Shown here piece by piece: positions 582 through 48,469 of a DNA stretch of 64,000 bases. The notes below the pieces were generated by a model. It was not told the origin of the DNA, searched no databases, and worked only from the letters and a program-made list of their open reading frames with translations. This DNA is from a phage, in NCBI GenBank assembly GCA_020241865.1, contig GCA_020241865.1_4709.1, one strand, 5' to 3'. The translations under genes were made by a program, and so were the position numbers. Position 1 is the stretch's first letter. Every line of letters starts with the position of its first letter.

Positions 582-1151
582 TCAACGATTCTTCATCACT
601 TTACCCAGGCTTTCGATATTATCCCAAAAGCGATTTTTACTTGGCGCATCGCCGACGATAACCGACATCAAATCACGACGTTCGCGACTGATGATGCCTT
701 GTGATTTCCAGATCACCATCGTCCAGCAAGCGGCCAGAACGAACAGATGGTTAATGCTCGGTTTGGTTTGCGCGATGAACGCAAGCCATGCCCAGATACC
801 GGTGTATACTAGCGTCACTAAAAAGAGCGAGATTGTTGCAACGACAACAACGAAGTTTTGGACAGCGGGTTGATTAGCGTTATCATGAATAGCGGTAAGA
901 TCAGGAAGATTACCTTCAACTGAACTCGTTTCATCGATTTCCAATTCTTCGATTTCTTTTCGTGTGTCAGGAGCTAATCCAGCATCATCGAGATGCTTTT
1001 TTAACCGCTGTATGCTTAATCGTTGACCGACAGGAATGTTGATGTTGTCGTAACTATTAAGCGCATCAACCAGGGAGCGTCCATCAACGAGAACCAAGCT
1101 CGCGGTACCCATCGTTTGCGGTTTTATTTTGTAAAGGTCTTTTACTTTCAT
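582..1151 (-). CDS. hypothetical membrane protein
   Basis: 189-aa ORF; long hydrophobic stretch (VVVVATISLFLVTLVYTGIWAWLAFIA ... FVLAACWTMVIW) consistent with two transmembrane helices. Confidence 0.5.
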   Translation of the reverse strand: MKVKDLYKIKPQTMGTASLVLVDGRSLVDALNSYDNINIPVGQRLSIQRLKKHLDDAGLAPDTRKEIEELEIDETSSVEGNLPDLTAIHDNANQPAVQNFVVVVATISLFLVTLVYTGIWAWLAFIAQTKPSINHLFVLAACWTMVIWKSQGIISRERRDLMSVIVGDAPSKNRFWDNIESLGKVMKNR

Positions 1152-3807: not shown

Positions 3808-4449
3808 TTAAATGTACTGCTTACCGCCCACGAAGGAAGTTAACCAGTTCCCGCTGACGAGTTGTGATACCCAGCCTGGAACGGCTCTACCATTCTGGCT
3901 CATGATGTTACCACACCAACCAGGGAATCCGGGACGGATGTAATAGAAAGTTAAATTGTAGAGATGGCAATTCCATACCGCAACGTTATGTTTACCAGAA
4001 ACCGCTTTAAAGACAAACGCGACAGGTAACGGAGACGATAACAATTCGGTCACAGGGACGGCTGACCAGTTCGCATTCGCGTTCCATGGTTGCCAGGTAT
4101 GGCTGCGCGAGTCGCAATATACGTTACCGTTGTTACCGCGCCCACCCGCATTCCACCACAGCGACGGACTCATGTTCTTAAGTGAGGTAAATTGCTGCGG
4201 TGGAATATTAGGAATAATAACAGGGTTGGTACCTTGCCCATGTTTCTTTTCTTTTGCGTTCACATACCCGCTTATCGATTCGAGGTATTTGACACCAGGA
4301 TAATTATTCTGGACTTGTGTCGCAATATCACGAACATCGAACGTCCAGCAGATCATGGTGTTGTAGTAAGCATCGGTGTTGTCGTACCATGCGTTACCAT
4401 CTTGTAAACGTGCGCCACTATTCGGTGTTTTATCTGTGTTTATAGCCAT
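3808..4449 (-). CDS. small protein of the tail-fibre locus, paralog of 4561..5277
   Basis: 213-aa ORF; C-terminal 40 aa (GFPGWCGNIMSQNGRAVPGWVSQLVSGNWLTSFVGGKQYI) nearly identical to the C-terminus of 4561..5277. Confidence 0.55.
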   Translation of the reverse strand: MAINTDKTPNSGARLQDGNAWYDNTDAYYNTMICWTFDVRDIATQVQNNYPGVKYLESISGYVNAKEKKHGQGTNPVIIPNIPPQQFTSLKNMSPSLWWNAGGRGNNGNVYCDSRSHTWQPWNANANWSAVPVTELLSSPLPVAFVFKAVSGKHNVAVWNCHLYNLTFYYIRPGFPGWCGNIMSQNGRAVPGWVSQLVSGNWLTSFVGGKQYI

Positions 4450-4547: not shown

Positions 4548-4578
4548 TATCTAACTTCAATTAAATTGAAGTTAGATA
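4548..4578 (-). terminator. 31-bp perfect palindrome (15-bp arms) overlapping the stop codon of 4561..5277; terminator or operator-like site
   Basis: tATCTAACTTCAATT-A-AATTGAAGTTAGATa with every position paired; on the minus strand it is followed by a U-rich tract (CUGUUUUAUCUG). Confidence 0.4.
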
Positions 4579-5277
4579 TTGTTTACCTCCAACAAACGAC
4601 GTTAACCAATTACCTGAAACAAGTTGCGATGCCCAGCCAGGCACTGCCCTACCGTTCTGGCTCATCACGTTACCTGCCCATCCCGGAAAACCAGGTCGGA
4701 AAATATATACTTGAATATGTGTTAAAGCGTTATCATTACCACCGCCAACAGCAACGTTACGACTCCCAGATGACGGGAAATATTCTTTTAAGAACAGAGG
4801 ATCGGTTGCTAATAAAGATGCGGGCCAAGGGTTCGCAGATGCATCAACATCGAATTCGGTCCATCGCCATTTACGTCCCGTGTCGAACCATGTCGATGTA
4901 CCACCACCCCTCACGACAAGATTGCGCGCATCATGGACATTATAAATTGATTCGATGTTACGCCATCCACCTTTTGCAGCGTTTGCTGCATAGCAAACCG
5001 CATTACCACCATTCTTCTTCTCGTAAACGGTTCGTTTGATATGAACACGGTCGATGAACGCTTCACCGTATTTGTTGACGAGCGTTTGTGCGATATCACG
5101 AAGATCGTGCATGTGAAAAGCGATGTCTTCGTTATGGAACCATGTTGTCTGGTTCCAGACGGTACCGTTTGGTTCGGCACACATCGATCGGATATTGTTG
5201 CGTTGATTAATCGCGATAAAACCCATTGTATACCTCGTTCCTATTCTCAAAAAGGAAATTTCATACGATGACGCCAT
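4561..5277 (-). CDS. small protein of the tail-fibre locus, paralog of 3808..4449
   Basis: Track ORF 4561..5313 trimmed to ATG at 5277 (MASSYEISF), because the first 12 codons are the translation of hairpin 5282..5311; the 3' arm of that hairpin (GGAGGAGC) sits 4 nt upstream of this ATG as a Shine-Dalgarno sequence. Confidence 0.55.
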   Translation of the reverse strand: MASSYEISFLRIGTRYTMGFIAINQRNNIRSMCAEPNGTVWNQTTWFHNEDIAFHMHDLRDIAQTLVNKYGEAFIDRVHIKRTVYEKKNGGNAVCYAANAAKGGWRNIESIYNVHDARNLVVRGGGTSTWFDTGRKWRWTEFDVDASANPWPASLLATDPLFLKEYFPSSGSRNVAVGGGNDNALTHIQVYIFRPGFPGWAGNVMSQNGRAVPGWASQLVSGNWLTSFVGGKQYLTSI

Positions 5278-5319: not shown

Positions 5320-5826
5320 TTACTTACTGATAACCTCAACGGAGTTGGGATCAGCGATCAATGCACGATCGGTAGAACAGTTGAAGAAGACCATACCAAC
5401 ACCATCACCGTTCGAGTTCAGGGTTGAACTTACATAAGACAGGGTTGGTTTATTCATGCGGTAGAAGCGTTCGCTGGTAGTGGTATTGAACCCCAGATCA
5501 ACGTAGTCTTTCACCGTGGTGTACAACTGTGTGGACTCGAAAACGGTTACCGGAGAGTCAACGGTAAACTGACTGCCTTCATCCACAACCAGAACTTTAT
5601 CGTTCCAGATTTCAGTGGTTGAAAACTTCGGTTTCCAGTGTTCGAATTCCTGGGTTGCGCCCCAGCAAGAATAAACAGCGAGATTGCTGTTCTTCTCAAC
5701 AGGTTTCAACCCCACCAGTTGTGTCAGGTCTTTATCCAGGTTCGGTAAGCCTTCCAGCGTAGCGCACCCACCCAGAGAAAGTACCATCAACATACCAAGA
5801 ACGATCGCGCAGAGTTTTTTCATCAT
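5320..5826 (-). CDS. putative lipoprotein (candidate receptor-blocking or superinfection-exclusion protein)
   Basis: Start placed at tandem ATG ATG (5821..5826) preceded by AAGGAAA; signal peptide MMKKLCAIVLGMLMVLSLGGC with lipobox-like LGGC; sits inside the receptor-binding locus. Confidence 0.6.
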   Translation of the reverse strand: MMKKLCAIVLGMLMVLSLGGCATLEGLPNLDKDLTQLVGLKPVEKNSNLAVYSCWGATQEFEHWKPKFSTTEIWNDKVLVVDEGSQFTVDSPVTVFESTQLYTTVKDYVDLGFNTTTSERFYRMNKPTLSYVSSTLNSNGDGVGMVFFNCSTDRALIADPNSVEVISK

Positions 5827-5874
5827 TAGATTTCCTTGTGTGTTAACGGAAGTGACTTCCATAAGGATTGATGA

Positions 5875-8800
5875 TTACTTTTTGAGCGCTTTAAGTTCTT
5901 CTTCCAACGCTTCCACTTTTGCCGTAAGCTTCTGTACTTGTTTGATTAATGGAACCACCAAACGTTCGTACATGACACCTTCAGCGACGAGTCCGTTAGA
6001 AGAAACGATAGCGGGGTCATCTTCTTCTGTTGCATCACGCCAGTGCACGTACTGCGGTGCGATCTCGCCAACCTCTTCAGCAATCAACCCATACCAACCC
6101 CAATCCTTGTTGTCTGCTTCACATGTAGAACGATACCACACAGGACGCATCTCCAATACTTTATCCGCTTGTTCATCCGTGATATTCTCGATATCTTTCT
6201 TATAGCGACGCGACGACGTTGAACGAAACACATTGTTGATCCCAGAAACAGGACTGATATACATGTTAGCCCCGCTGGTTGTAGTGCTAATGTCCCATAC
6301 CGCAAATCCGCCGTTACTCCCATTTTTTACGATCAATGTGTTGGCAATAATGTCCAGGTTATTGTCGTAACCGGTTAATTGTCTTTCCGTTACATAACTG
6401 GATAGATTGACCGAGTAGTTCTTACTGTTATAACAACGACGCCATCCTGGGCTGTTGGTACTGCCATTATAGTTGTCGTAGCTATAAATGAACTCGGAGT
6501 TGGTTTTCGCACCACTGACGGAAGACGTGGTTGCGGTCGTAACACGGATGGTATAGTTTGTCATCCCGAAGCTAACGACCTCGATAACAGCACCAGCCAG
6601 AGGGATAATACCGCACTTGGTTTCACTGTCTGGGATGTATGCGCTGTCGGCAGCTGCGAAGGAGCAACGTGCGACCCAGGCGCGGGTATTGAATGCACCT
6701 TGGTTTTGCAACAACGTGATAAACGATGAGGTCGTAATCGAGCTGTTATTATCACCGGTGATCAACCAGCCGGTCGGGCATGCGGTTGCGCCAACGTTTT
6801 TCGCTGTTAACGTGATGTTCTGCGATCCGTCGAAGGCTACGCCACTGATAGTACGCGCAGTCTGCAGTTTCGTCGCCGTTGCTGCGTTCCCTGATGTGTT
6901 CTGGTTCCCTGCGGCGTTAACACCCGGCAGATTGATATTCGCACTACCGTCGAAAGACACCCCACCAATGGTGCGGGCGGTTTTCAGTTTTGTCGCCGTG
7001 GCGGCATTACCGGTCGTGTCTTGGTTACCGGTGGTGTTTACCCCAGGTAGGTTGATATTGGCCGTTCCGTTAAATGAAACACCACCAATCGTCCGTGCCG
7101 TTTGCAACTTCGTTGCGGATGCCGCATTCCCCGTGGTGTTTTGGTTACCTGTTGTATTCACACCTGGGATACTATCCTTAGATGTGTAGATCTGTGCCCA
7201 TTCCGACCAGTTCGCATCTGATGCATCACGACGCGAACGTAGGTAAGCTGGAGCGTGTGCGCCTGAAGTACCTGACCATCCAATAAGGATCTCACCTTCA
7301 CCTACTGCGGTTGCTCCTTTAAGATGAACAACGTTACCGTAGGCTGTAGGGTATCCGTTATTGTACGCTTCATACATCTGGATACCCGTATTGCTGCCCT
7401 GGGTCGCATTAGCTAAAGCGGTGACCCGTCCCTTGGAAGCGAGCACGTTAATGCTAAAGCTAATATCGGTTGTACCGTCAAAGGCGACCCCATTAATCCT
7501 CCGCGCTGTTTGGAGTTTCGTGGCAGTAGCCGCATTACCAGAGGTACTCTGATTGCCTGCTTTGTTCACACCTGGTAAATCAATGTTGGCGGTTCCATCA
7601 AAGGACACGCCCCCTATGGTTCTCGCCGTCTGAAGTTTTGTTGCTGAACCAGCGTTTCCGGAAGTGCTTTGATTACCCGCCGCGTTGACACCTGGTAGGT
7701 TAATGCTAGCAGAACCATCAAAAGAAACTCCACCGATCGTAATAGCTGTTCGCAACTTCGTGGCTGTCGCAGCGTTACCCGTCGTATTCTGATTACCAGC
7801 TGCATTGACGCCAGGTAATGCGATATCAGCTGTGCCATCGAACGCGACACCTCCGATTTTACGGGCGGTTTGTAGCTTGGTTGCTGTAGCAGCATTACCG
7901 CTGGTATTTTGCGTACCGGCTTTATTTACACCAGGAAGATCGATGTTAGCAGAACCATCGAAGCTGACGCCACCTATCGTTCTTGCAGTAGCAAGTTTAG
8001 CGGCTGTAGCAGCGACGTTACCGACTTTTAACCATTCTCCCCATGGACCATCCACACCGTTCCATGATGCCGTTAAACTGCGCACGTATATGTTTCCTGT
8101 ACGTACTGTGTAACGTTGTGTTCCACCGAATTGACCGGCTGGGAGCACTTCGATGTAACCTACAGCATTTGCTTCAGGGAAATTGTGGGCAGCATCGGCA
8201 TTCGTTGATGTTTGTTTGGACCAAATACCCACAGACGCTTCAACCGGACCGTAGGTATTCAGGTTTGCATCGGTTGGGAGTTGTCCTCTGAAACGACGGA
8301 ACGACGAGGCGTTAATTCCCAATATCGTTTGCATCCCTTCAACACCGGACTGCTGTAAGAGAGCGCGTGCGGTAGAAGTGATCGTTGCAAGCGCTACTTT
8401 ATCAGCACCTGTGAAATACGGTAATTTATTCGCTGATGTTGTTAGTCCAGAAAGGGCTGTGAGCAAAGCGTTCAGCGGTTGTTTGCCAGCTAAAGCGTTT
8501 GTTACAGTTGTCGCGAAGTTAGGATCGTTACCTAACGCTTGCGCCAATTCATTGAGTGTGTCCAACGCTTCAGGAGACGATCCGACAAGCGCTGCGATAG
8601 CACGCATCACAAATTCGGTATTCGCAATCTGCTGACTTTTATCGCCTTCGGCTGCGGTTGGTGTTGTCGGCTTATCGGTAAATGCCGGGCTAGAAAGATC
8701 CGCTTTAGCGCTAATTTGTGTTGCTAGGACTTTCCCGGCTTTCGCGGATAGTGCGAGTACTTCACTATCACTGTTCGTCGCCGAGGTTAACTGAACTAAC

Positions 8801-9399
8801 CCTTTACGTGTGGTACTAGCGTCCACTGCTGTGTACTTTCCTTTCGCAACATCCATCACAGCTTTAACTGCTTTTGATGTTGCGGCTTTGGTTTCGTCGT
8901 CACTATTTGTTTCGCTGCTAAGGATCGTTAATCCCCGTTTCTCGGTGGTCGCATCTGGTAAGAATGCGTCACTAACAACCTTCAATTCGATCGCATCGGT
9001 ATTGCTTACGACAACAAATACCTGACAATTTAACACACGTCCTGCCCCTTCGGAAGGCAGTGGTTTGTACCCTTCTGGCGCATTGCCGACAACGACAAGT
9101 TCACCCTGATCGTCGTACAGACCGATCTCACGCACCCAGAACCCACCTTGACTGGCGGGAATAATGCCTTCAACAACAATCCGGGTTGTGTCGTCAACAT
9201 CAATGTGGATGTTAGAAACTTCCCCACGATAAACTTCGTGTACGAGCGCTGTTTGGCTAACATCGGGGGTTGGTGTAGAGCCGTTTCCGTCACCAACAGC
9301 AAAATGTGTGATTCTTAGTTTCTCACCGTCAGGAAGTAGCGCTGCGGCAATACGTTCAGCGCCTTTATCGGTAATGACCGTTTTATAAGTTGTACTCAT
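5875..9399 (-). CDS. long tail fibre: P2 gpH/Stf-like N-terminus, Phage_fiber_2 tandem repeats, C-terminal S74-type intramolecular chaperone
   Basis: 1174-aa ORF; N-terminus MSTTYKTVITDKGAERIAAALLPDGEKLRITHFAVGDGNG is collinear with P2 H / lambda Stf N-termini; eight ~40-aa repeats (ATATKLQTARTIGGVSFDGSANI(D/N)LPGVN); C-terminus has the STSSRRYKKDIENI motif and a coiled-coil tail typical of self-cleaving chaperone domains. Confidence 0.85.
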   Translation of the reverse strand: MSTTYKTVITDKGAERIAAALLPDGEKLRITHFAVGDGNGSTPTPDVSQTALVHEVYRGEVSNIHIDVDDTTRIVVEGIIPASQGGFWVREIGLYDDQGELVVVGNAPEGYKPLPSEGAGRVLNCQVFVVVSNTDAIELKVVSDAFLPDATTEKRGLTILSSETNSDDETKAATSKAVKAVMDVAKGKYTAVDASTTRKGLVQLTSATNSDSEVLALSAKAGKVLATQISAKADLSSPAFTDKPTTPTAAEGDKSQQIANTEFVMRAIAALVGSSPEALDTLNELAQALGNDPNFATTVTNALAGKQPLNALLTALSGLTTSANKLPYFTGADKVALATITSTARALLQQSGVEGMQTILGINASSFRRFRGQLPTDANLNTYGPVEASVGIWSKQTSTNADAAHNFPEANAVGYIEVLPAGQFGGTQRYTVRTGNIYVRSLTASWNGVDGPWGEWLKVGNVAATAAKLATARTIGGVSFDGSANIDLPGVNKAGTQNTSGNAATATKLQTARKIGGVAFDGTADIALPGVNAAGNQNTTGNAATATKLRTAITIGGVSFDGSASINLPGVNAAGNQSTSGNAGSATKLQTARTIGGVSFDGTANIDLPGVNKAGNQSTSGNAATATKLQTARRINGVAFDGTTDISFSINVLASKGRVTALANATQGSNTGIQMYEAYNNGYPTAYGNVVHLKGATAVGEGEILIGWSGTSGAHAPAYLRSRRDASDANWSEWAQIYTSKDSIPGVNTTGNQNTTGNAASATKLQTARTIGGVSFNGTANINLPGVNTTGNQDTTGNAATATKLKTARTIGGVSFDGSANINLPGVNAAGNQNTSGNAATATKLQTARTISGVAFDGSQNITLTAKNVGATACPTGWLITGDNNSSITTSSFITLLQNQGAFNTRAWVARCSFAAADSAYIPDSETKCGIIPLAGAVIEVVSFGMTNYTIRVTTATTSSVSGAKTNSEFIYSYDNYNGSTNSPGWRRCYNSKNYSVNLSSYVTERQLTGYDNNLDIIANTLIVKNGSNGGFAVWDISTTTSGANMYISPVSGINNVFRSTSSRRYKKDIENITDEQADKVLEMRPVWYRSTCEADNKDWGWYGLIAEEVGEIAPQYVHWRDATEEDDPAIVSSNGLVAEGVMYERLVVPLIKQVQKLTAKVEALEEELKALKK
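6620..8100 (-). repeat. diverged tandem coding repeats (Phage_fiber_2-type) inside the fibre gene
   Basis: Five plus three ~120-nt units encoding the GNAATATKLQTARTIGGVSFDGS motif; they generate the antisense pseudo-ORFs at 6617..7189 and 7805..8113; boundaries approximate. Confidence 0.7.
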
Positions 9400-10089: not shown

Positions 10090-11859
10090 TTATGCCGCTA
10101 CATACCCAGGCCAACGTTCTCTTGGCCAGTTTGTTGCGCCCTGTCCAACGTTGTCCTTACCAGAAGTTACATTACTTACGTCCCAACCACTAAGATCCTG
10201 GTTAAATGCGGTGTTGTTGCGCATCATGAGGTCGATCCTACGTAACGATTGGGTATTCCAGCCGGAAATGTCTTGGTTGAATGCCGCGTTGTAAGCAAAC
10301 ATGTTAACAACGTCTTGTAATTTTGAAGTGTTCCAGCCGCTTATATCGCTATTGAACCGCATGTTCGAGAACATACTGCTAGCGTTGACAAGACTACCTG
10401 TTTTCCAGTTAACCAGCTTGTCCCCATCAAGTGCATAGCAGCTACTGAACATGTAACTCATGTCGTTAACTTTGGATACATCCCATTTATCTAACCCGTT
10501 ACCAACGAACTTGCGACAATCTTGGAACATCGAGCTCATATCGGTAACCTGGCTCACATTCCATTTGCTAAAGTCGAGGTTGAGGTTTGTGCATCCGGAG
10601 AAGGTTTGATACATACTGGTGATACGACTAACATCCCATTCTTGAATGTTAGGATCATTAAGTATAGATAAGAATTTGAACAATTCGTCTAACGACGTCC
10701 ATTTCTCTGGGATACGGTTTGGTACGGTACGGAGTGATAAAAGGTAACTGGTTGACGGAGAGCGGAACATACCGTTATCCCAATTTACGATTTCTGTAAT
10801 GTTGGACCCACGGATCGTTTGGCGTCCGTTACCATTATACACAGACCCTGTTGCAGTTATTGTATATTCGTTTGTATCAGCATACGTATATTCAGCCTGT
10901 GTAGGCCACTCACCTATTACATCCCTATTCCCATCGCCCCAATCAATGGAAATATCTATCCAACCATCAAGATCTAGGGTAACGGTCCCGCCATTGGTCT
11001 TCAGGACGTATTTACCTGCATTGTCGGTATAATAACAAACAATCATCGCACCGTACAGGTTACCAATTTGCCAATCATCCTTTTGAGTTACCGCGATATG
11101 TGCTGTGCCACGTTGTAGGAAAAGAACCGTACGGTTCTCGTCAGTCTGTAATGTGGTTAATGCTTGAGCCTTATCATCGTCGGTAATTTCACCAGCTTCC
11201 ACTAAAGCACTTAACATTCTTTCGAAGTATTCGATGGGTAATTGGCGTCCTACAGACATATCAACTGATGGAACAGCGAGATCATCCAATGCGGCGGCAG
11301 TTGCAAGCACTAATGATCCATTGGTGGTGTCTGTTTCTTGGAGGTAATGCAGTCCCGTAATCTGGTACGCTTGAATGATTGTAATCAGATCCAGCGTATC
11401 GTTAATGACCTGTACTTGTAAATGTCCAGACCAAACATAGCTGCTTTCAGCAATCGGTAATTCGACCGACTGAATACCCGATGTTTCAAAACTGATCTTC
11501 TTATTAAGATCGGCTTCCAGGAAATCAACCGCGAGGTCGAAATTTATACCGTACTTTTCAGCGATGGAATCTATGATGTTCCTGAAAGCAACATCGGTAC
11601 TTACGATGAATCGTAAAGGGATTCCTGTGAACGCATTAGCAATATCTCGACGAACATACGTAAGTGATTGTTCGAAGAAATAGGGACTGTTATCTCCAGG
11701 TTTGATGGTTACCTGACACATTTCAGGATGTTCAGCTGGGATGAACGATTCAAATTTAACATCGGATTCCTTCAACGAAAGCATGTTCTTCCGGTTTACC
11801 AGCGCCAGAAGATCGGCTTTCCATCCAGGATAAACAGTAGACATAAGCACTCCAATCAT
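10090..11859 (-). CDS. tail fibre with shared N-terminal anchor module and C-terminal DUF285 (BspA-like) repeats
   Basis: 589-aa ORF; N-terminus YVRRDIANAFTGIPLRFIV ... YGINFDLAVDFL; C-terminal repeats such as WNVSQVTDMSSMF, WDVSKVNDMSYMF and FNQDISGWNT match the DUF285 repeat pattern. Confidence 0.75.
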   Translation of the reverse strand: MIGVLMSTVYPGWKADLLALVNRKNMLSLKESDVKFESFIPAEHPEMCQVTIKPGDNSPYFFEQSLTYVRRDIANAFTGIPLRFIVSTDVAFRNIIDSIAEKYGINFDLAVDFLEADLNKKISFETSGIQSVELPIAESSYVWSGHLQVQVINDTLDLITIIQAYQITGLHYLQETDTTNGSLVLATAAALDDLAVPSVDMSVGRQLPIEYFERMLSALVEAGEITDDDKAQALTTLQTDENRTVLFLQRGTAHIAVTQKDDWQIGNLYGAMIVCYYTDNAGKYVLKTNGGTVTLDLDGWIDISIDWGDGNRDVIGEWPTQAEYTYADTNEYTITATGSVYNGNGRQTIRGSNITEIVNWDNGMFRSPSTSYLLSLRTVPNRIPEKWTSLDELFKFLSILNDPNIQEWDVSRITSMYQTFSGCTNLNLDFSKWNVSQVTDMSSMFQDCRKFVGNGLDKWDVSKVNDMSYMFSSCYALDGDKLVNWKTGSLVNASSMFSNMRFNSDISGWNTSKLQDVVNMFAYNAAFNQDISGWNTQSLRRIDLMMRNNTAFNQDLSGWDVSNVTSGKDNVGQGATNWPRERWPGYVAA

Positions 11860-16459: not shown

Positions 16460-17035
16460 TTAGTAAGGAATCAGATCATTAAGCTTTTCTTCTTCAATGA
16501 CAAAGAAGTTGTTCTGGTCGTCTAAATCTGTTAACAGGACTTGTCCGACAGTAAAGCACGTACCGCCCTTCTTAGGCACCCATACCGGCTCATTCGTTAC
16601 CTTATCGGGATACCATTTGAAACGATTGGTATCCAAGAAGAACGCTGCTTTGTTTGCTTTATCGGTTGAACGATAGCTAACCAATGCAGGCCACTCAATC
16701 CAGGTGTTTGTGCATGGTACATGTAAAGGATACCATGCGCGCCAGCGTTTGCCCGGACTGTTAGGATCAACCCAATACTCGGCAGTCAATACAGCATCTT
16801 TATAATGTTTCTGCATTAACATTTCGAGCACAAGCTCATTGCCTTTTGATGCGTCTAAAGTCACTTCCGTCATATAAAGAGATTTAGGTAATTCAGACTG
16901 TTTTGCGGGTGTTACAACACCGGTAACCAACGGTCTGCTCGGTTTACGTTTCTGTTCTTTCCGACGTGTGTAAAAGAATAGTCCGATAGATACAGCAACA
17001 AGTATAATAAACAACACTACCTTAATCCAATTCAT
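16460..17035 (-). CDS. membrane-anchored protein (N-terminal signal-anchor)
   Basis: 191-aa ORF; N-terminal hydrophobic helix MNWIKVVLFIILVAVSIGLFFYTRRK followed by a soluble domain. Confidence 0.5.
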   Translation of the reverse strand: MNWIKVVLFIILVAVSIGLFFYTRRKEQKRKPSRPLVTGVVTPAKQSELPKSLYMTEVTLDASKGNELVLEMLMQKHYKDAVLTAEYWVDPNSPGKRWRAWYPLHVPCTNTWIEWPALVSYRSTDKANKAAFFLDTNRFKWYPDKVTNEPVWVPKKGGTCFTVGQVLLTDLDDQNNFFVIEEEKLNDLIPY

Positions 17036-18298: not shown

Positions 18299-18796
18299 TT
18301 ACGTGTGTCGTCGTTTACCAAAGAAAATGTGGCTATCTACCACGGTGATATTGGTAGCATGTTTTCTGAAATGTTTAGGGCGAAGATGTTTCGCGTTAAA
18401 GAATACGGCTCCTCGTGTTGGGTCGGCTTTATGGTAAGCCGCAATGTCAGTATAACGTAATGTTGCGACCTCTCGTGCTATTGCTCTTGCTCGCTCAAAA
18501 GCAGCATGATCGCGTATGACAATACGCCTTTGTTTTGTCCAGGGGAATTGACCTCTTTGCAGTACGACGTCTCTGACGTTCGTAGGGAATCGGTAGTCCA
18601 TAGATCGATTATGTATTAAAAACGCCACGGAGTATTGCCCTTTTACAGATTCGCCTCTGGCTTCCATATACACCGCACATGCGACGATCTCTTTCCGGCA
18701 ATCGATTCTAGGTCCTGCGTTCACCGATGCTTGACTGAACGGTGTAATAAGCAACATAACAAGCCCTAAAATCAACGTGTGTAAAATACCTTGCAT
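18299..18796 (-). CDS. secreted cell wall hydrolase, SleB/Hydrolase_2-like (endolysin candidate)
   Basis: 165-aa ORF; N-terminal signal peptide (MQGILHTLILGLVMLLITPFSQA) and the VACAVYMEARGES motif characteristic of SleB-type hydrolases. Confidence 0.6.
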   Translation of the reverse strand: MQGILHTLILGLVMLLITPFSQASVNAGPRIDCRKEIVACAVYMEARGESVKGQYSVAFLIHNRSMDYRFPTNVRDVVLQRGQFPWTKQRRIVIRDHAAFERARAIAREVATLRYTDIAAYHKADPTRGAVFFNAKHLRPKHFRKHATNITVVDSHIFFGKRRHT

Positions 18797-19337
18797 CTTA
18801 ATAACCTCACGATAAGGTGCTGTCCACTGGCGTCTTGATAACGCATCCCGTCATCGGGTTGTTCTATTCAGCGGGCAGCAGGTTAGCGTCAGATGTTTGC
18901 CCGACATCCACGACAGAAATAAACGGTACTGAAATTACGGTCTCCTCTGGTTTGGCAATAAACATAACGTTGGATAACAGAACCCATTTCCCGCATCCAA
19001 CGCGGTAAAGGTGTACATCGTTTGAATTCATATAGTTTCTCAAAGATGTTAACCTCTACCGTCAAGCCATAGGTTGTATTTATCCCGAACATACGGATCG
19101 CGATAAATACGTCGATAGACTTGATGTGGTATAAACTCGCAATGTACGAGTTCGTCGCTTAATTTATGCCGTCGCTCCATACCGTTGTGAATACGACGTA
19201 TCTCCCGGATATTAAAGGTTGTTTTATTCAAGAGAATAGACATAATGGCAGATCGATGATCCAGATTAAAGATCGCCATCACGCTTCGTATCTCGCGTAA
19301 AACAACTTCTCTATCGACAAGGATGCGATTAGTTAAC

Positions 19338-19709
19338 TTAAGATTCTCCGTGATACCCATAACCTTCATCCTCGACACGTCGACACATCGGTAAAAATAA
19401 ACACCAGCTTGTTGCACTGAGGATCGCCGTTGCGATGATATTTGCGATATCACTCAATCGAGCATCGGCTTGCCACATAACAAGCATGAAAAGAACGTAC
19501 GCGAACCCATACACGACAAACCGTCTGATGTTACGCGTCGACCACGTACAAATATACAAAAGGGGAAGCTGCCCTATAACACAAACGATGGTTCGGATAA
19601 CGTAATAAACGCGTTCCGTCGTTGTTTCAAAATCGATATTCGTTGCAGAAATCCCAATCATTATAAAAGTGAAAATGAAATAGATTTTTGCGTATGCTTT
19701 TAAACTCAT
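19338..19709 (-). CDS. small multi-pass membrane protein (holin candidate)
   Basis: 123-aa ORF with 3-4 hydrophobic helices; overlaps track ORF 19049..19453, one of which is probably spurious. Confidence 0.4.
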   Translation of the reverse strand: MSLKAYAKIYFIFTFIMIGISATNIDFETTTERVYYVIRTIVCVIGQLPLLYICTWSTRNIRRFVVYGFAYVLFMLVMWQADARLSDIANIIATAILSATSWCLFLPMCRRVEDEGYGYHGES

Positions 19710-19725
19710 GGCTTTTCCCGATCGT

Positions 19726-19959
19726 TTATTTGTGTTTTCCTACATTCCTCAACAAGGTAACGATAACGAATACCGCTATCATCAAGAAGACGAACCATAA
19801 CCCTACGTTAATTCGGGCAGCAGGTTCATCGACCATGAAGAACATCATCCCACAAAACCCAATGACCATCCATGCTAGAACCATCCCCGTTAATCCCCGT
19901 AGTAGCATATGTCCCATCATGAACTCCTTCTTACTTTTTCTGATAAAGCGATGATTCAA
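19726..19959 (-). CDS. small membrane protein with two transmembrane helices (holin-like)
   Basis: 77-aa ORF; helices LTGMVLAWMVIGFCGMMFFMV and LWFVFLMIAVFVIVTLL; charged C-terminus. Confidence 0.45.
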   Translation of the reverse strand: MNHRFIRKSKKEFMMGHMLLRGLTGMVLAWMVIGFCGMMFFMVDEPAARINVGLWFVFLMIAVFVIVTLLRNVGKHK

Positions 19960-20093
19960 ATTTTAGAAACATCACTAACGCGAATGCGAGTAATAACGCA
20001 CGTACCCACATACCTCCTTGACAACTGTTGTACAACATAAAGACCAGAGCGATGCCGCCCATATGCAGGCGGCACTTATCGAACAGTGTTGGT

Positions 20094-20321
20094 TTATACA
20101 TAAGAGATCAATCGTTGAATGATTTTTACTTTGCCTTTGCCTGGACCTTTCTTGCGGCGATTCAACAGACGGATACTGTTTCCAGTTACGGTGTCGCCAT
20201 CATAATCAGCCCGGAACTGTGATAAAAAAGCAGGTTGTATCTGATCGACACCAGGATTGCTGTGGAAAGGATTGAGACTTAAAAGAGGGTTAGCTGGAAT
20301 CATCGTATTGTCCTTACTCAA
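20094..20321 (-). CDS. small basic protein with KKGPGKGK motif
   Basis: 75-aa ORF abutting the stop of 20322..20672; the C-terminal RRKKGPGKGKVKII motif is shared with the three small proteins at 38985..39551. Confidence 0.4.
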   Translation of the reverse strand: MSKDNTMIPANPLLSLNPFHSNPGVDQIQPAFLSQFRADYDGDTVTGNSIRLLNRRKKGPGKGKVKIIQRLISYV

Positions 20322-20672
20322 TTATTTACCCAGATAGAGATATTCACCGCCCTGAACAACACCGGTTGCTGGATCAACAAGTATACGAACCCTCGCGTAG
20401 GTCTTGAAAGAGGGGTTGAAAACTTCGAAGTCTGCCACTTTCAATTTCACGCTGGGGTTGGTAGGGTTCTTAACTCCGGGAAGTTCTTTCGGGGTACCGA
20501 AATCAACACCGCATTCTTCAAGGTCTGCTGGCGTCATGCTCTCCATGGCCATGTAGATTGCTTTTGCTTTATCGTAAACTTCTGGGCTATCCAGCAATCC
20601 AGCCTGCGCCGAACCGACAACACTACCGAACAGAATAGCAACAGCAACAAACAATTTAGTTAACGTTTTCAT
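20322..20672 (-). CDS. secreted/periplasmic protein
   Basis: 116-aa ORF; signal peptide MKTLTKLFVAVAILFGSVVGSAQA. Confidence 0.5.
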   Translation of the reverse strand: MKTLTKLFVAVAILFGSVVGSAQAGLLDSPEVYDKAKAIYMAMESMTPADLEECGVDFGTPKELPGVKNPTNPSVKLKVADFEVFNPSFKTYARVRILVDPATGVVQGGEYLYLGK

Positions 20673-20708
20673 GATATTTTCCTCGAAAGTAAAATGTTAC
20701 AATACCTA

Positions 20709-21131
20709 TTAACGTACGGCCGCTACGCTGTTAGCGCATGCCTGAATATCATCGGTATTTACGATGATGGTTTCGTTAAACGCACGAATACGTGCACGAC
20801 GTGCTTCTTTAAGGCTGGCGATTGCGCTAGCAGCTTGATCTGTATTCGCGAGGCTAATAACCGGGATCAAACGCATGTCAGGACTGCAGATATTCAATGC
20901 TTGGTATACACGTCCATTGATTCCTACGGTATCAGACATCGGATAGTGCGCACGGCATTGAAATTGACCCATGACAACAAGCGAACGATCTGAGATACCA
21001 ATCTGATAACGACCATCTTCACTGTAGGCGTAGCAGTTATTCCCACGAGCCATCCAGTTAGCCTGTGCTTGCGTGCTAACAAAAGCCAGGGTGGTGACGA
21101 TAGCGAATACGATATTTTTGAACAGTTTCAT
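20709..21131 (-). CDS. secreted/periplasmic protein
   Basis: 140-aa ORF; signal peptide MKLFKNIVFAIVTTLAFVSTQAQA; several Cys residues. Confidence 0.5.
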   Translation of the reverse strand: MKLFKNIVFAIVTTLAFVSTQAQANWMARGNNCYAYSEDGRYQIGISDRSLVVMGQFQCRAHYPMSDTVGINGRVYQALNICSPDMRLIPVISLANTDQAASAIASLKEARRARIRAFNETIIVNTDDIQACANSVAAVR

Positions 21132-47512: not shown

Positions 47513-48469
47513 TTAATGCAAGACACGATCTGCTGGAATTATCGAGGCATTGCTGTCGGACAGATTCGTCGCTTTACGATCAGGACTGAATCGACGAGCG
47601 TTCTCTTCATGGTGGTTGACGGGGTTATCCTGTTTTAACAGTTCCATTGCCTCATCAAACGTTAGTTCCCGAAATCCTCTTGGATAGAGGAACAGGGGTT
47701 CATCAACATCCAACCCTTTAACAAACCCGTGCGACAACCAGACGCTACCATCAGCACTGTAAAGAACCGGCTCAACGTCGTAATCCAAGACGTATTGATA
47801 CCAATAATTAAACAGTTGAGCAATCCACCGATTACGTAATAAGTAATCGATCATAACCGCACTACGCACGCTATGACACCAGCCGATCTTACCATCAACT
47901 TTCTGCAGCAACGTACCCTCATTTGCTTGATGAATAACCGCATTAAATAACCACGCAAGATCGGTTGCGAAAAGTGCGGCTTCTTGAATATCGCTAATGT
48001 AACGCATGGGTATCGTCAGATGCGTGCGGTAATGCGACATTGCCTCTTCGTAGTTGTCTCCTTCGATGCAGAGAGTCCCGTTTGGTGACAGATGTCCCTG
48101 ATTCAACGACTGGCCAATATAAAGATCAGCGATCGCGTTAATATGTTCGACGGTACCCAAGGTTAACTCAGACATAAAACAATCGACATCAACAGCCATC
48201 GATGTGCTGGAAACAAACGGATTGGTTGGGCGAGTTGTATTAGAGAAAATAATCGACCAAATCGCTTCGTGTTTTTCATCCGATGGCATAAACGAAATAT
48301 GGCGTTCTGCGCTATTATCGACAACAAATACCTTAACGGTTTTCAAACAGCTAGTACAAACATAGCACGTGTTCGGCAACGGCATATCCGAAAACATATC
48401 GTAACGAATCGATGCCAGCGAAATGTCATGTCCGCAATGAGGGCATGTCGTATCAATAAGCGTTTTCAT
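47513..48469 (-). CDS. hypothetical protein with N-terminal zinc-ribbon-like Cys pairs
   Basis: 318-aa ORF; CPHCGH ... CYVCTSC. Confidence 0.45.
   Translation of the reverse strand: MKTLIDTTCPHCGHDISLASIRYDMFSDMPLPNTCYVCTSCLKTVKVFVVDNSAERHISFMPSDEKHEAIWSIIFSNTTRPTNPFVSSTSMAVDVDCFMSELTLGTVEHINAIADLYIGQSLNQGHLSPNGTLCIEGDNYEEAMSHYRTHLTIPMRYISDIQEAALFATDLAWLFNAVIHQANEGTLLQKVDGKIGWCHSVRSAVMIDYLLRNRWIAQLFNYWYQYVLDYDVEPVLYSADGSVWLSHGFVKGLDVDEPLFLYPRGFRELTFDEAMELLKQDNPVNHHEENARRFSPDRKATNLSDSNASIIPADRVLH

Follow-up and report, generated by a model that had tools for sequence, protein, structure and literature searches.

The 64-kb stretch of phage DNA analysed here (contig GCA_020241865.1_4709.1, called the window below) carries on its minus strand, at 5320..5826, a gene of 168 codons plus stop whose product is the homolog of gp88 of phage Goslar and a member of PHROG 9559. 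To judge from its sequence, we hold it highly probable that the gene encodes a real, functional and exported lipoprotein, the product being almost certainly a lipid-anchored protein of the outer membrane. As to its role, we tentatively favour envelope masking or exclusion, late in infection and directed at a component of the envelope that is conserved. The genes of the window described below are all on the minus strand.

Lipoprotein signal, family and predicted fold

The N-terminus of the 168-residue product reads MMKKLCAIVLGMLMVLSLGGC, followed after a break mark by ATLEGLPNLDKD (ATLEG...). A ribosome-binding site, AAGGAA, can be read in the sequence at 5832..5837, 5 nucleotides (nt) 5′ of the first ATG; a 180-residue version starting at 5862 was rejected because the proteins of Goslar and relatives begin MKK or MTKK. 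Residues 1-20 (5767..5826) form the putative signal peptide, with MMKK as n-region, LCAIVLGMLMVL as h-region and the residues S-L-G-G before Cys21. The codon for this cysteine, the predicted site of diacylglyceryl and acyl attachment, lies at 5764..5766 and is followed by an alanine codon (position +2 of the mature protein). The hydropathy profile shows this single N-terminal hydrophobic segment and no transmembrane domain (TMD) at the C-terminus.

Lipoprotein signals were scored with a script applying a PROSITE PS51257-type rule, which calls for K or R within the first 7 residues, six uncharged residues and a lipobox of the pattern [LVI][ASTVIG][GAS]C with the cysteine at position 15-35. The script picks out the 168-residue protein (GMLMVLSLGGC, Cys21) and only one other of the 516 Met-initiated frames of at least 60 residues in the window, the latter clearly spurious and non-genic. 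In the whole 237-kb Goslar genome, gp88 is the sole annotated gene with such a signal. An earlier note on this DNA had read a signal peptide with a lipobox-like LGGC from the sequence; the rule, the position of Cys21 and the behaviour of the family, 32 of 33 members of which pass the same rule, bear this out. In E. coli, lipoproteins with no Asp at position +2 are sorted to the outer membrane by the Lol pathway. Because the +2 residue is Ala in the window protein and A, S, K, T, Q or V, never D, across the family, an outer-membrane location is predicted.

The closest relative of the window is Goslar, a 237-kb nucleus-forming Escherichia jumbo phage to which this region is 92.5% identical at the DNA level; the window protein and Goslar_00088 (HOV27_gp088 in RefSeq) are 98% identical. 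The match to PHROG 9559 (E 1.5e-21) aligns residues 1-153 with profile positions 1-148 of 166. When 5.8 billion proteins were searched through a word index, a single sequence as query retrieved 6 matches and a profile retrieved 26 clusters; HMMER, run exhaustively with a profile on 1.84 billion representatives, returned 15 matches. By tblastn, 55 of 50,697 phage records matched. All of them belong to phages of Erwinia, Salmonella, Escherichia or Proteus, and those inspected are without exception jumbo phages (Goslar, Seoulvirus with SPN3US gp159, or Erwinia Machinavirus and relatives). No bacterial chromosomal context for a family match was seen in the protein and phage-record searches. This small family was confined, in these searches, to jumbo phages and to jumbo-phage-sized contigs from enteric-bacterial assemblies; its lineages are the Goslar-like phages, Seoulvirus, Erwinia Machinavirus and the Wellington-like phages, the Seoulvirus and Erwinia members being 28-36% identical to the window protein. 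The exact window protein occurs on 33 contigs of up to 241 kb, with source labels that include Salmonella Enteritidis and E. coli O157. Assemblies of E. coli, Salmonella and Shigella supply further members of the cluster formed at 90% identity, in which every protein is named “hypothetical protein”. Elsewhere in the family the database names are “hypothetical protein”, an automatic “Lipoprotein” (as in the Erwinia phages Kwan, Huxley and Wellington), one “DUF2846” and one “adhesin”; no DUF2846 match was obtained with the Goslar-like members to bear out the label of that one GenBank homolog.

The lipobox is LAGC in 14 sequences, LSGC in seven and LGGC in five, with LTGC and similar forms in others. 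Every family member listed has exactly two cysteines in its mature part, and these and the lipobox cysteine are conserved without exception in the 33 sequences, even where identity falls to 25%. Residues invariant in the alignments are L18, C21, C54, D82, G84, L101, R120, Y122, S134, G140, G142 and C150; G20 is at least 90% conserved (26 sequences). The signal sequence itself drifts while the lipobox is kept: compared with family member P0002, the window protein differs at about half of its signal-peptide positions and at few in the mature domain. The gene is kept in several genera and is under strong purifying selection, with a dN/dS of 0.04 relative to Goslar and 0.09 relative to the 86%-identical homolog from a metagenomic relative, L005, values similar to those of the endolysin gene and other neighbours.

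An AlphaFold2 model built on 26 sequences has a mean predicted local distance difference test score (pLDDT) of 79, with residues 41-150 at 82-95; with 7 close homologs the score had been 35 and the model unusable, so that the wider alignment was essential. The model consists of the signal helix, a low-confidence tether and nine beta-strands. The tether, predicted to be flexible, covers residues 22-45 (about 20-45; 5692..5763), has a pLDDT of 48-61 and differs in length between clades. The remainder, residues 46-151 (5374..5691), is modelled as an all-beta barrel, with the invariant Cys54 (codon 5665-5667) on the first strand and Cys150 (5377-5379) on the last. In our reading of the model, a disulfide between the two probably closes the barrel, which would fit the oxidising periplasm.

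Comparison of this model with the PDB by Foldseek gave nothing significant, no solved structure is close in fold, and a PDB search by sequence gave no match. Comparison with predicted viral structures returned family members whose name is “Lipoprotein” (phages Kwan and Huxley); weak matches are proteins of Pectobacterium phage Possum and Erwinia phage Joad, both labelled putative lipoproteins, and an uncharacterized protein of Xanthomonas phage DIBBI. Pfam, NCBIfam and PADLOC returned nothing meaningful, the sole NCBIfam match (entericidin A) being confined to the signal peptide. At the level of fold only, the protein resembles the lysozyme and muramidase inhibitors MliC, PliC and PhiA. An outer-membrane-tethered inhibitor of peptidoglycan hydrolases could act in the manner of these proteins, either by blocking, like T4 Spackle, the tail lysin that a superinfecting phage brings in or by holding back, until lysis, the endolysin that the phage itself exports. 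For the Goslar-like members, however, Pfam gives no match at E<=10 to any family, lysozyme-inhibitor families of the MliC/PliC type included, and we consider such a function improbable. Spackle itself is unrelated in fold and is not known to be a lipoprotein.

Candidate late promoter and presence in virion preparations

A TATG motif at 5860..5863, 34 nt upstream of the ATG, is a candidate late promoter and start site for the non-virion RNA polymerase. It is near this motif that the window and Goslar, whose upstream genes differ, become homologous again. Of 10 loci representing 5 lineages, 9 have a TATG 34-60 nt upstream of the lipoprotein gene. In Goslar, this motif is found 36-76 nt upstream of several late structural genes, in a set made up of the genes for the major capsid protein (gp41), gp23, gp30, gp217, gp93 and gp248. 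The early Goslar gene chmA (gp189) is preceded by TATATTAC, which we take to match the phiKZ early-promoter consensus; this early motif is absent upstream of the lipoprotein gene. In phiKZ, the late-promoter consensus TATG has been defined experimentally, the G being the transcription start (PMC4666361). Since the motif is short, it is no more than suggestive of a late promoter for the lipoprotein gene, and the sequences suggest that the early/late promoter logic of the phiKZ type is conserved in Goslar-like phages.

Evidence that the protein is made comes from a preprint on the Goslar virion, which lists gp88 among ten proteins of unknown function present at more than 200 copies per virion equivalent. 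Label-free quantitative mass spectrometry of virions purified by polyethylene glycol precipitation and CsCl centrifugation ranks gp88 between gp214 and gp22, thus above a protein of about 580 copies per virion (10.64898/2026.04.21.720040). Taken together with the promoter motif, this suggests to us that the lipoprotein is made late and abundantly. It could also mean that gp88 is a genuine virion-associated protein, part of the Goslar particle or bound to it (for example, to a cloud of DUF7941 fibres), its lipoprotein signal being incidental or used otherwise; that the gene always adjoins DUF7941 genes would agree with such a role. Several observations make this highly improbable. The protein was not seen in the atomic model obtained by electron cryomicroscopy, nor does it figure in the set of green fluorescent protein fusions, and the same preparations also contain, according to their authors, fragments of the phage nucleus (chimallin) and PhuZ (10.64898/2026.04.21.720040). 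The invariant lipobox and the conserved cysteine pair point to export, whereas virions assemble in the cytoplasm. Finally, co-purifying outer-membrane fragments would account for the mass-spectrometry signal, and we infer that gp88 reaches the preparations on such material. The words “outer membrane”, “signal peptide” and “lipoprotein” are all absent from the preprint (10.64898/2026.04.21.720040).

Data from the Seoulvirus SPN3US point the same way. Mass spectrometry of CsCl-purified SPN3US virions lists the DUF7941 proteins gp155 and gp160, both abundant, but none of gp156-159 (PMC5105663, Table S4). The absence of gp159, the lipoprotein homolog, fits an exported, non-structural protein; the hydrolase gp156 is likewise not a virion protein. 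As a separate observation, gp155 (which also has a GP38 adhesin domain) and gp160 stay in tailless particles (am27 sup-), from which the tail proteins vanish (PMC5105663). This result sits awkwardly with the proposed attachment of DUF7941 filaments to the peripheral baseplate alone; gp155 and gp160 may co-purify as free filaments or may bind the head or neck.

The host-recognition locus and its counterparts in other clades

Read in the direction of transcription, the locus comprises a gp93-like gene (DUF7941), a gp92-like gene (1198 residues), a gene for a DUF7941-DUF285 protein, a gp91-like gene (DUF7941), the gene for the long tail fibre, the lipoprotein gene, two gp87 paralogs, a gp86-like gene (DUF7941 plus TIM barrel), a gene for a gp85-like membrane protein and a gp84-like gene. 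The position between fibre genes given in the earlier note is therefore correct, with the tail fibre upstream and the gp87-like open reading frames (ORFs) and the DUF7941/TIM-barrel protein downstream. A role in host recognition is assigned to gp86, the Goslar homolog of the latter, in the Goslar preprint (10.64898/2026.04.21.720040).

The long tail fibre (5875..9399, 1174 residues) has Phage_tail_fib and Phage_fiber_2 domains and a C-terminal Peptidase_S74 intramolecular chaperone; its stop codon is separated from the lipoprotein start by 48 nt. The fibre is a mosaic. Its N-terminus and shaft are 80-91% identical to Goslar gp90 and its distal 300 residues or so are replaced, so that the tip ending in the Peptidase_S74 chaperone stands where Goslar has a P1 S-like tip and a separate Tfa gene; the fibre of L005 has yet another tip, with a DUF4376 chaperone. 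In both Goslar and L005 the lipoprotein gene adjoins the fibre gene or that of its chaperone. The lipoprotein has diverged to the same extent as its neighbours in each comparison (86% identity with L005, 48% with a more distant relative, L004). Since it diverges like its neighbours while the fibre tips differ, the lipoprotein gene is a stable resident of the host-recognition module, around which fibres are exchanged.

Among the other genes of the module, the gp87 paralog directly downstream of the lipoprotein gene likely occupies 4561..5277 (ORF to 5313), the likely start being the ATG of MASSYE..., preceded by GGAGGAG; the second, at 3808-4449, is 36% identical to it over the aligned region. 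The two have a common C-terminus of about 45 residues (FPGW.GN.MSQNGRAVPGW.SQLVSGNWLTSFVGGKQY) and different N-terminal parts. Goslar has one gp87 copy only, and the second copy of the window is 93% identical to an L005 gene. Neither paralog has a match in Pfam, PHROGs, NCBIfam or PADLOC; they may be exchangeable host-recognition modules. A perfect palindrome with a 14-bp stem, TATCTAACTTCAATTAAATTGAAGTTAGATA, at 4548-4578 overlaps the stop codon of a gp87 paralog and may be a bidirectional terminator or the recombination boundary of an inserted paralog. The DUF7941-DUF285 protein (10090-11859, 589 residues) is missing from Goslar, where there is a 205-bp gap, and has a homolog of 74% identity in L005. 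The gp85-like protein (582..1151; 99% identical to Goslar gp85) has a soluble N-terminal domain of about 98 residues followed by hydrophobic segments. In L004 its homolog (10644-11210) is encoded directly 3′ of the lipoprotein gene, and it may be a functional partner of the lipoprotein.

In every clade the lipoprotein gene adjoins DUF7941 genes. The gene for the Seoulvirus and Erwinia homolog stands alone, is divergent from a DUF7941 host-recognition gene and has a strong hairpin-plus-T terminator 3′ of it; by tblastn, the lipoprotein and weak DUF7941 similarity are all that these loci have in common with the window. At its 3′ side the homolog converges on a cassette that encodes a GH108/PG_binding_3 hydrolase, an ORF of 34-44 residues with a single TMD and a DUF1353 protein. 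The distance between cassette and homolog varies: the two are neighbours in Wellington-like phages, a single gene separates them in SPN3US-like phages (on opposite strands in either case), and in Machinavirus two or three DUF7941 genes intervene. The cassette is conserved in loci L002, L006, L016 and L018, with the whole block set among DUF7941 genes.

The proximity of the hydrolase cassette in the Wellington-like, SPN3US-like and Machinavirus loci raises the prospect of a lysis-related factor that acts with the endolysin at the last step, either as a non-canonical component that resembles an o-spanin or destabilises the outer membrane, or by regulating when lysis occurs. The lipoprotein would share with the spanins (the lambda o-spanin Rz1, the T1 u-spanin gp11) the traits of a late, phage-encoded outer-membrane lipoprotein with an endolysin cassette nearby in two clades. 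It is the product of the only lipobox gene of Goslar, whose genome showed no canonical spanin pair in a genome-wide scan and offers no other spanin candidate; late and abundant expression would be compatible with a lysis function, as would the membrane-protein gene that directly follows it in L004. The architecture, on the other hand, is that of neither spanin type. The mature part is modelled as a folded, probably disulfide-closed globular barrel in place of a short Pro-rich or extended periplasm-spanning segment; lack of a C-terminal TMD speaks against a u-spanin; and no type-II membrane protein with a periplasmic coiled coil, as expected of an i-spanin, is encoded next to the gene in the window, SPN3US or ChrisDB. 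In the Seoul-like and Erwinia phages the homolog lies on the strand opposite to the hydrolase cassette and has its own promoter-like motif and terminator. The Goslar-like gene lies outside the lysis cluster, some 12.5 kb from the Hydrolase_2 endolysin and holin-like genes in the window, and the Goslar GH108 gene, gp24, is about 80 kb from gp88. On balance we judge a lysis function unlikely.

The lysis-like cluster of the window consists of genes at 18299-18796, 19338-19709, 20322-20672 and 20709-21131, which encode a Hydrolase_2 (SleB-type) endolysin with an N-terminal hydrophobic signal or signal-anchor-release-like segment, a holin-like protein of 123 residues with three predicted TMDs and two small proteins with cleavable-looking Sec signal peptides (...SAQA before G and ...TQAQA before N). 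No spanin pair was found near this cluster (18299-21131). Two candidates elsewhere in the window were dropped. A small embedded lipobox ORF at 47775..47662, conserved in Goslar, was considered as an o-spanin gene, but its mature part would be only about 25 residues and no TMD-containing ORF of at least 80 residues accompanies it on that strand. The product of 17035..16460 (191 residues, N-terminal TMD) was considered as an i-spanin, but the positive charges after its TMD imply an N-out, C-in topology.

Envelope masking as a tentative role

The mechanism that we tentatively favour would run as follows. The gene would end the tail-fibre transcription unit and would in addition be served by its own TATG-type, late promoter-like site. 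Its product would be exported by Sec, processed by signal peptidase II, lipid-anchored on Cys21 and carried by the Lol pathway to the outer membrane, in whose inner leaflet it would reside; its 148 mature residues would form a flexible tether of about 25 residues and a compact beta-barrel. The several hundred copies per virion equivalent that co-purify with Goslar virions would reflect a protein abundant enough to load the outer membrane of the infected cell late in infection. There, acting from the periplasmic side, it might bind a conserved envelope component required for irreversible adsorption or DNA delivery, and so render the cell, and the envelope debris left by lysis, non-receptive to the phage. 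Progeny, for which a very large adhesive fibre cloud has been proposed, would be protected, and superinfection would be limited. The target would not be the variable receptor read by the swappable fibre tip. Speaking for such a role is that the gene is tied to host recognition, through the long fibre in Goslar-like phages and through DUF7941 genes. The protein would then be the functional counterpart of T5 Llp and phi80 Cor, though it belongs to another family.

The earlier note had likened the protein to T5 Llp, which blocks the receptor of its own phage, and had remarked that it is larger; the size difference is real (148 mature residues against 61). T5 llp encodes 77 residues, with a signal, MKKLFLAMAVVLLSAC, followed by S..., and is labelled “Cor superinfection exclusion protein” (T5.158) in RefSeq. 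Like the window protein, it is a lipoprotein with a classical signal peptidase II signal from a virulent phage. The gene arrangement, too, is comparable: llp adjoins, and is divergent from, oad, much as the Seoulvirus and Erwinia homolog is divergent from a DUF7941 gene. In sequence, fold and co-variation with the fibre tip, by contrast, the likeness to Llp fails. Llp is specific for FhuA and llp is an early gene, whereas the window lipoprotein seems to be made late and varies independently of the fibre tip. Cor, of the phi80/N15/HK022 type, is a small exclusion protein whose gene is linked to tail-fibre genes, a position that recalls that of the window gene; size and fold differ and no FhuA link is in evidence, the Cor sequence itself having been left out of the comparison. 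No T5-like or Cor-carrying lambdoid phage is among the tblastn matches in the 50,697 phage records. The PHROG 9559-type family is uncharacterised; it is a protein family distinct from Llp and Cor and found in another group of phages.

A number of observations weigh against exclusion, most of all in its Llp-like form. BLASTP of the lipoprotein against Llp gave no alignment at E<=100, and hhalign aligned 11 columns only, all within the signal peptide; nor did Pfam, NCBIfam or PADLOC yield a meaningful match. A different fibre tip and chaperone set the window apart from Goslar, and still the two lipoproteins share 98% identity; because the tip is exchanged while lipoprotein identity tracks that of the neighbours, the lipoprotein has not co-evolved with that receptor-binding protein. 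In the same vein, the identical protein is present in assemblies labelled E. coli and Salmonella, and a near-identical one in Shigella. In L004 the gene lies between the gp92-like gene and that of the gp85-like membrane protein, with no long fibre adjoining. The Seoulvirus and Erwinia genes abut the endolysin-like cassette, which favours a part in lysis. A protein expressed late would have no power to exclude early superinfection. Moreover, the glycosidase and carbohydrate-binding domains predicted in DUF7941 proteins suggest surface-glycan receptors (10.64898/2026.04.21.720040); primary receptors of this kind, if such they are, would be beyond masking by a lipoprotein that faces the periplasm. 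Whatever probability these functions leave falls to an explanation as yet unconsidered.

Literature on SPN3US gp159, SPN3US spanins, and jumbo-phage lipoproteins or superinfection exclusion yielded nothing specific, and the words “lipoprotein”, “superinfection” and “spanin” are all absent from a 2026 review of jumbo-phage biology. Little work seems to have been done on proteins that chimalliviruses export. According to a preprint, Goslar-like phages are known almost exclusively, and Seoul-like phages mostly, as persistent infections in bacterial isolate assemblies. In a broader version of envelope masking, which we hold to be distinctly unlikely, a dedicated, very abundant lipoprotein of a hitherto undescribed family, carried by nucleus-forming jumbo phages of enteric bacteria, would re-programme the envelope so that infected cells, their daughters and debris become refractory to adsorption, feeding a carrier-state, “persistent virulent phage” lifestyle; if true, this would explain gp88 as an otherwise unexplained high-copy protein of Goslar virion preparations.

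Identification of gp88 as a predicted lipoprotein re-interprets what has been a high-copy virion-associated protein of unknown function: it is probably envelope material, and would be genuinely odd otherwise. For the nucleus-forming jumbo phages it provides a candidate for exclusion, for protection against debris or for the missing outer-membrane step of lysis, and it may offer a handle on the persistence of Goslar-like and Seoul-like phages in bacterial isolates.

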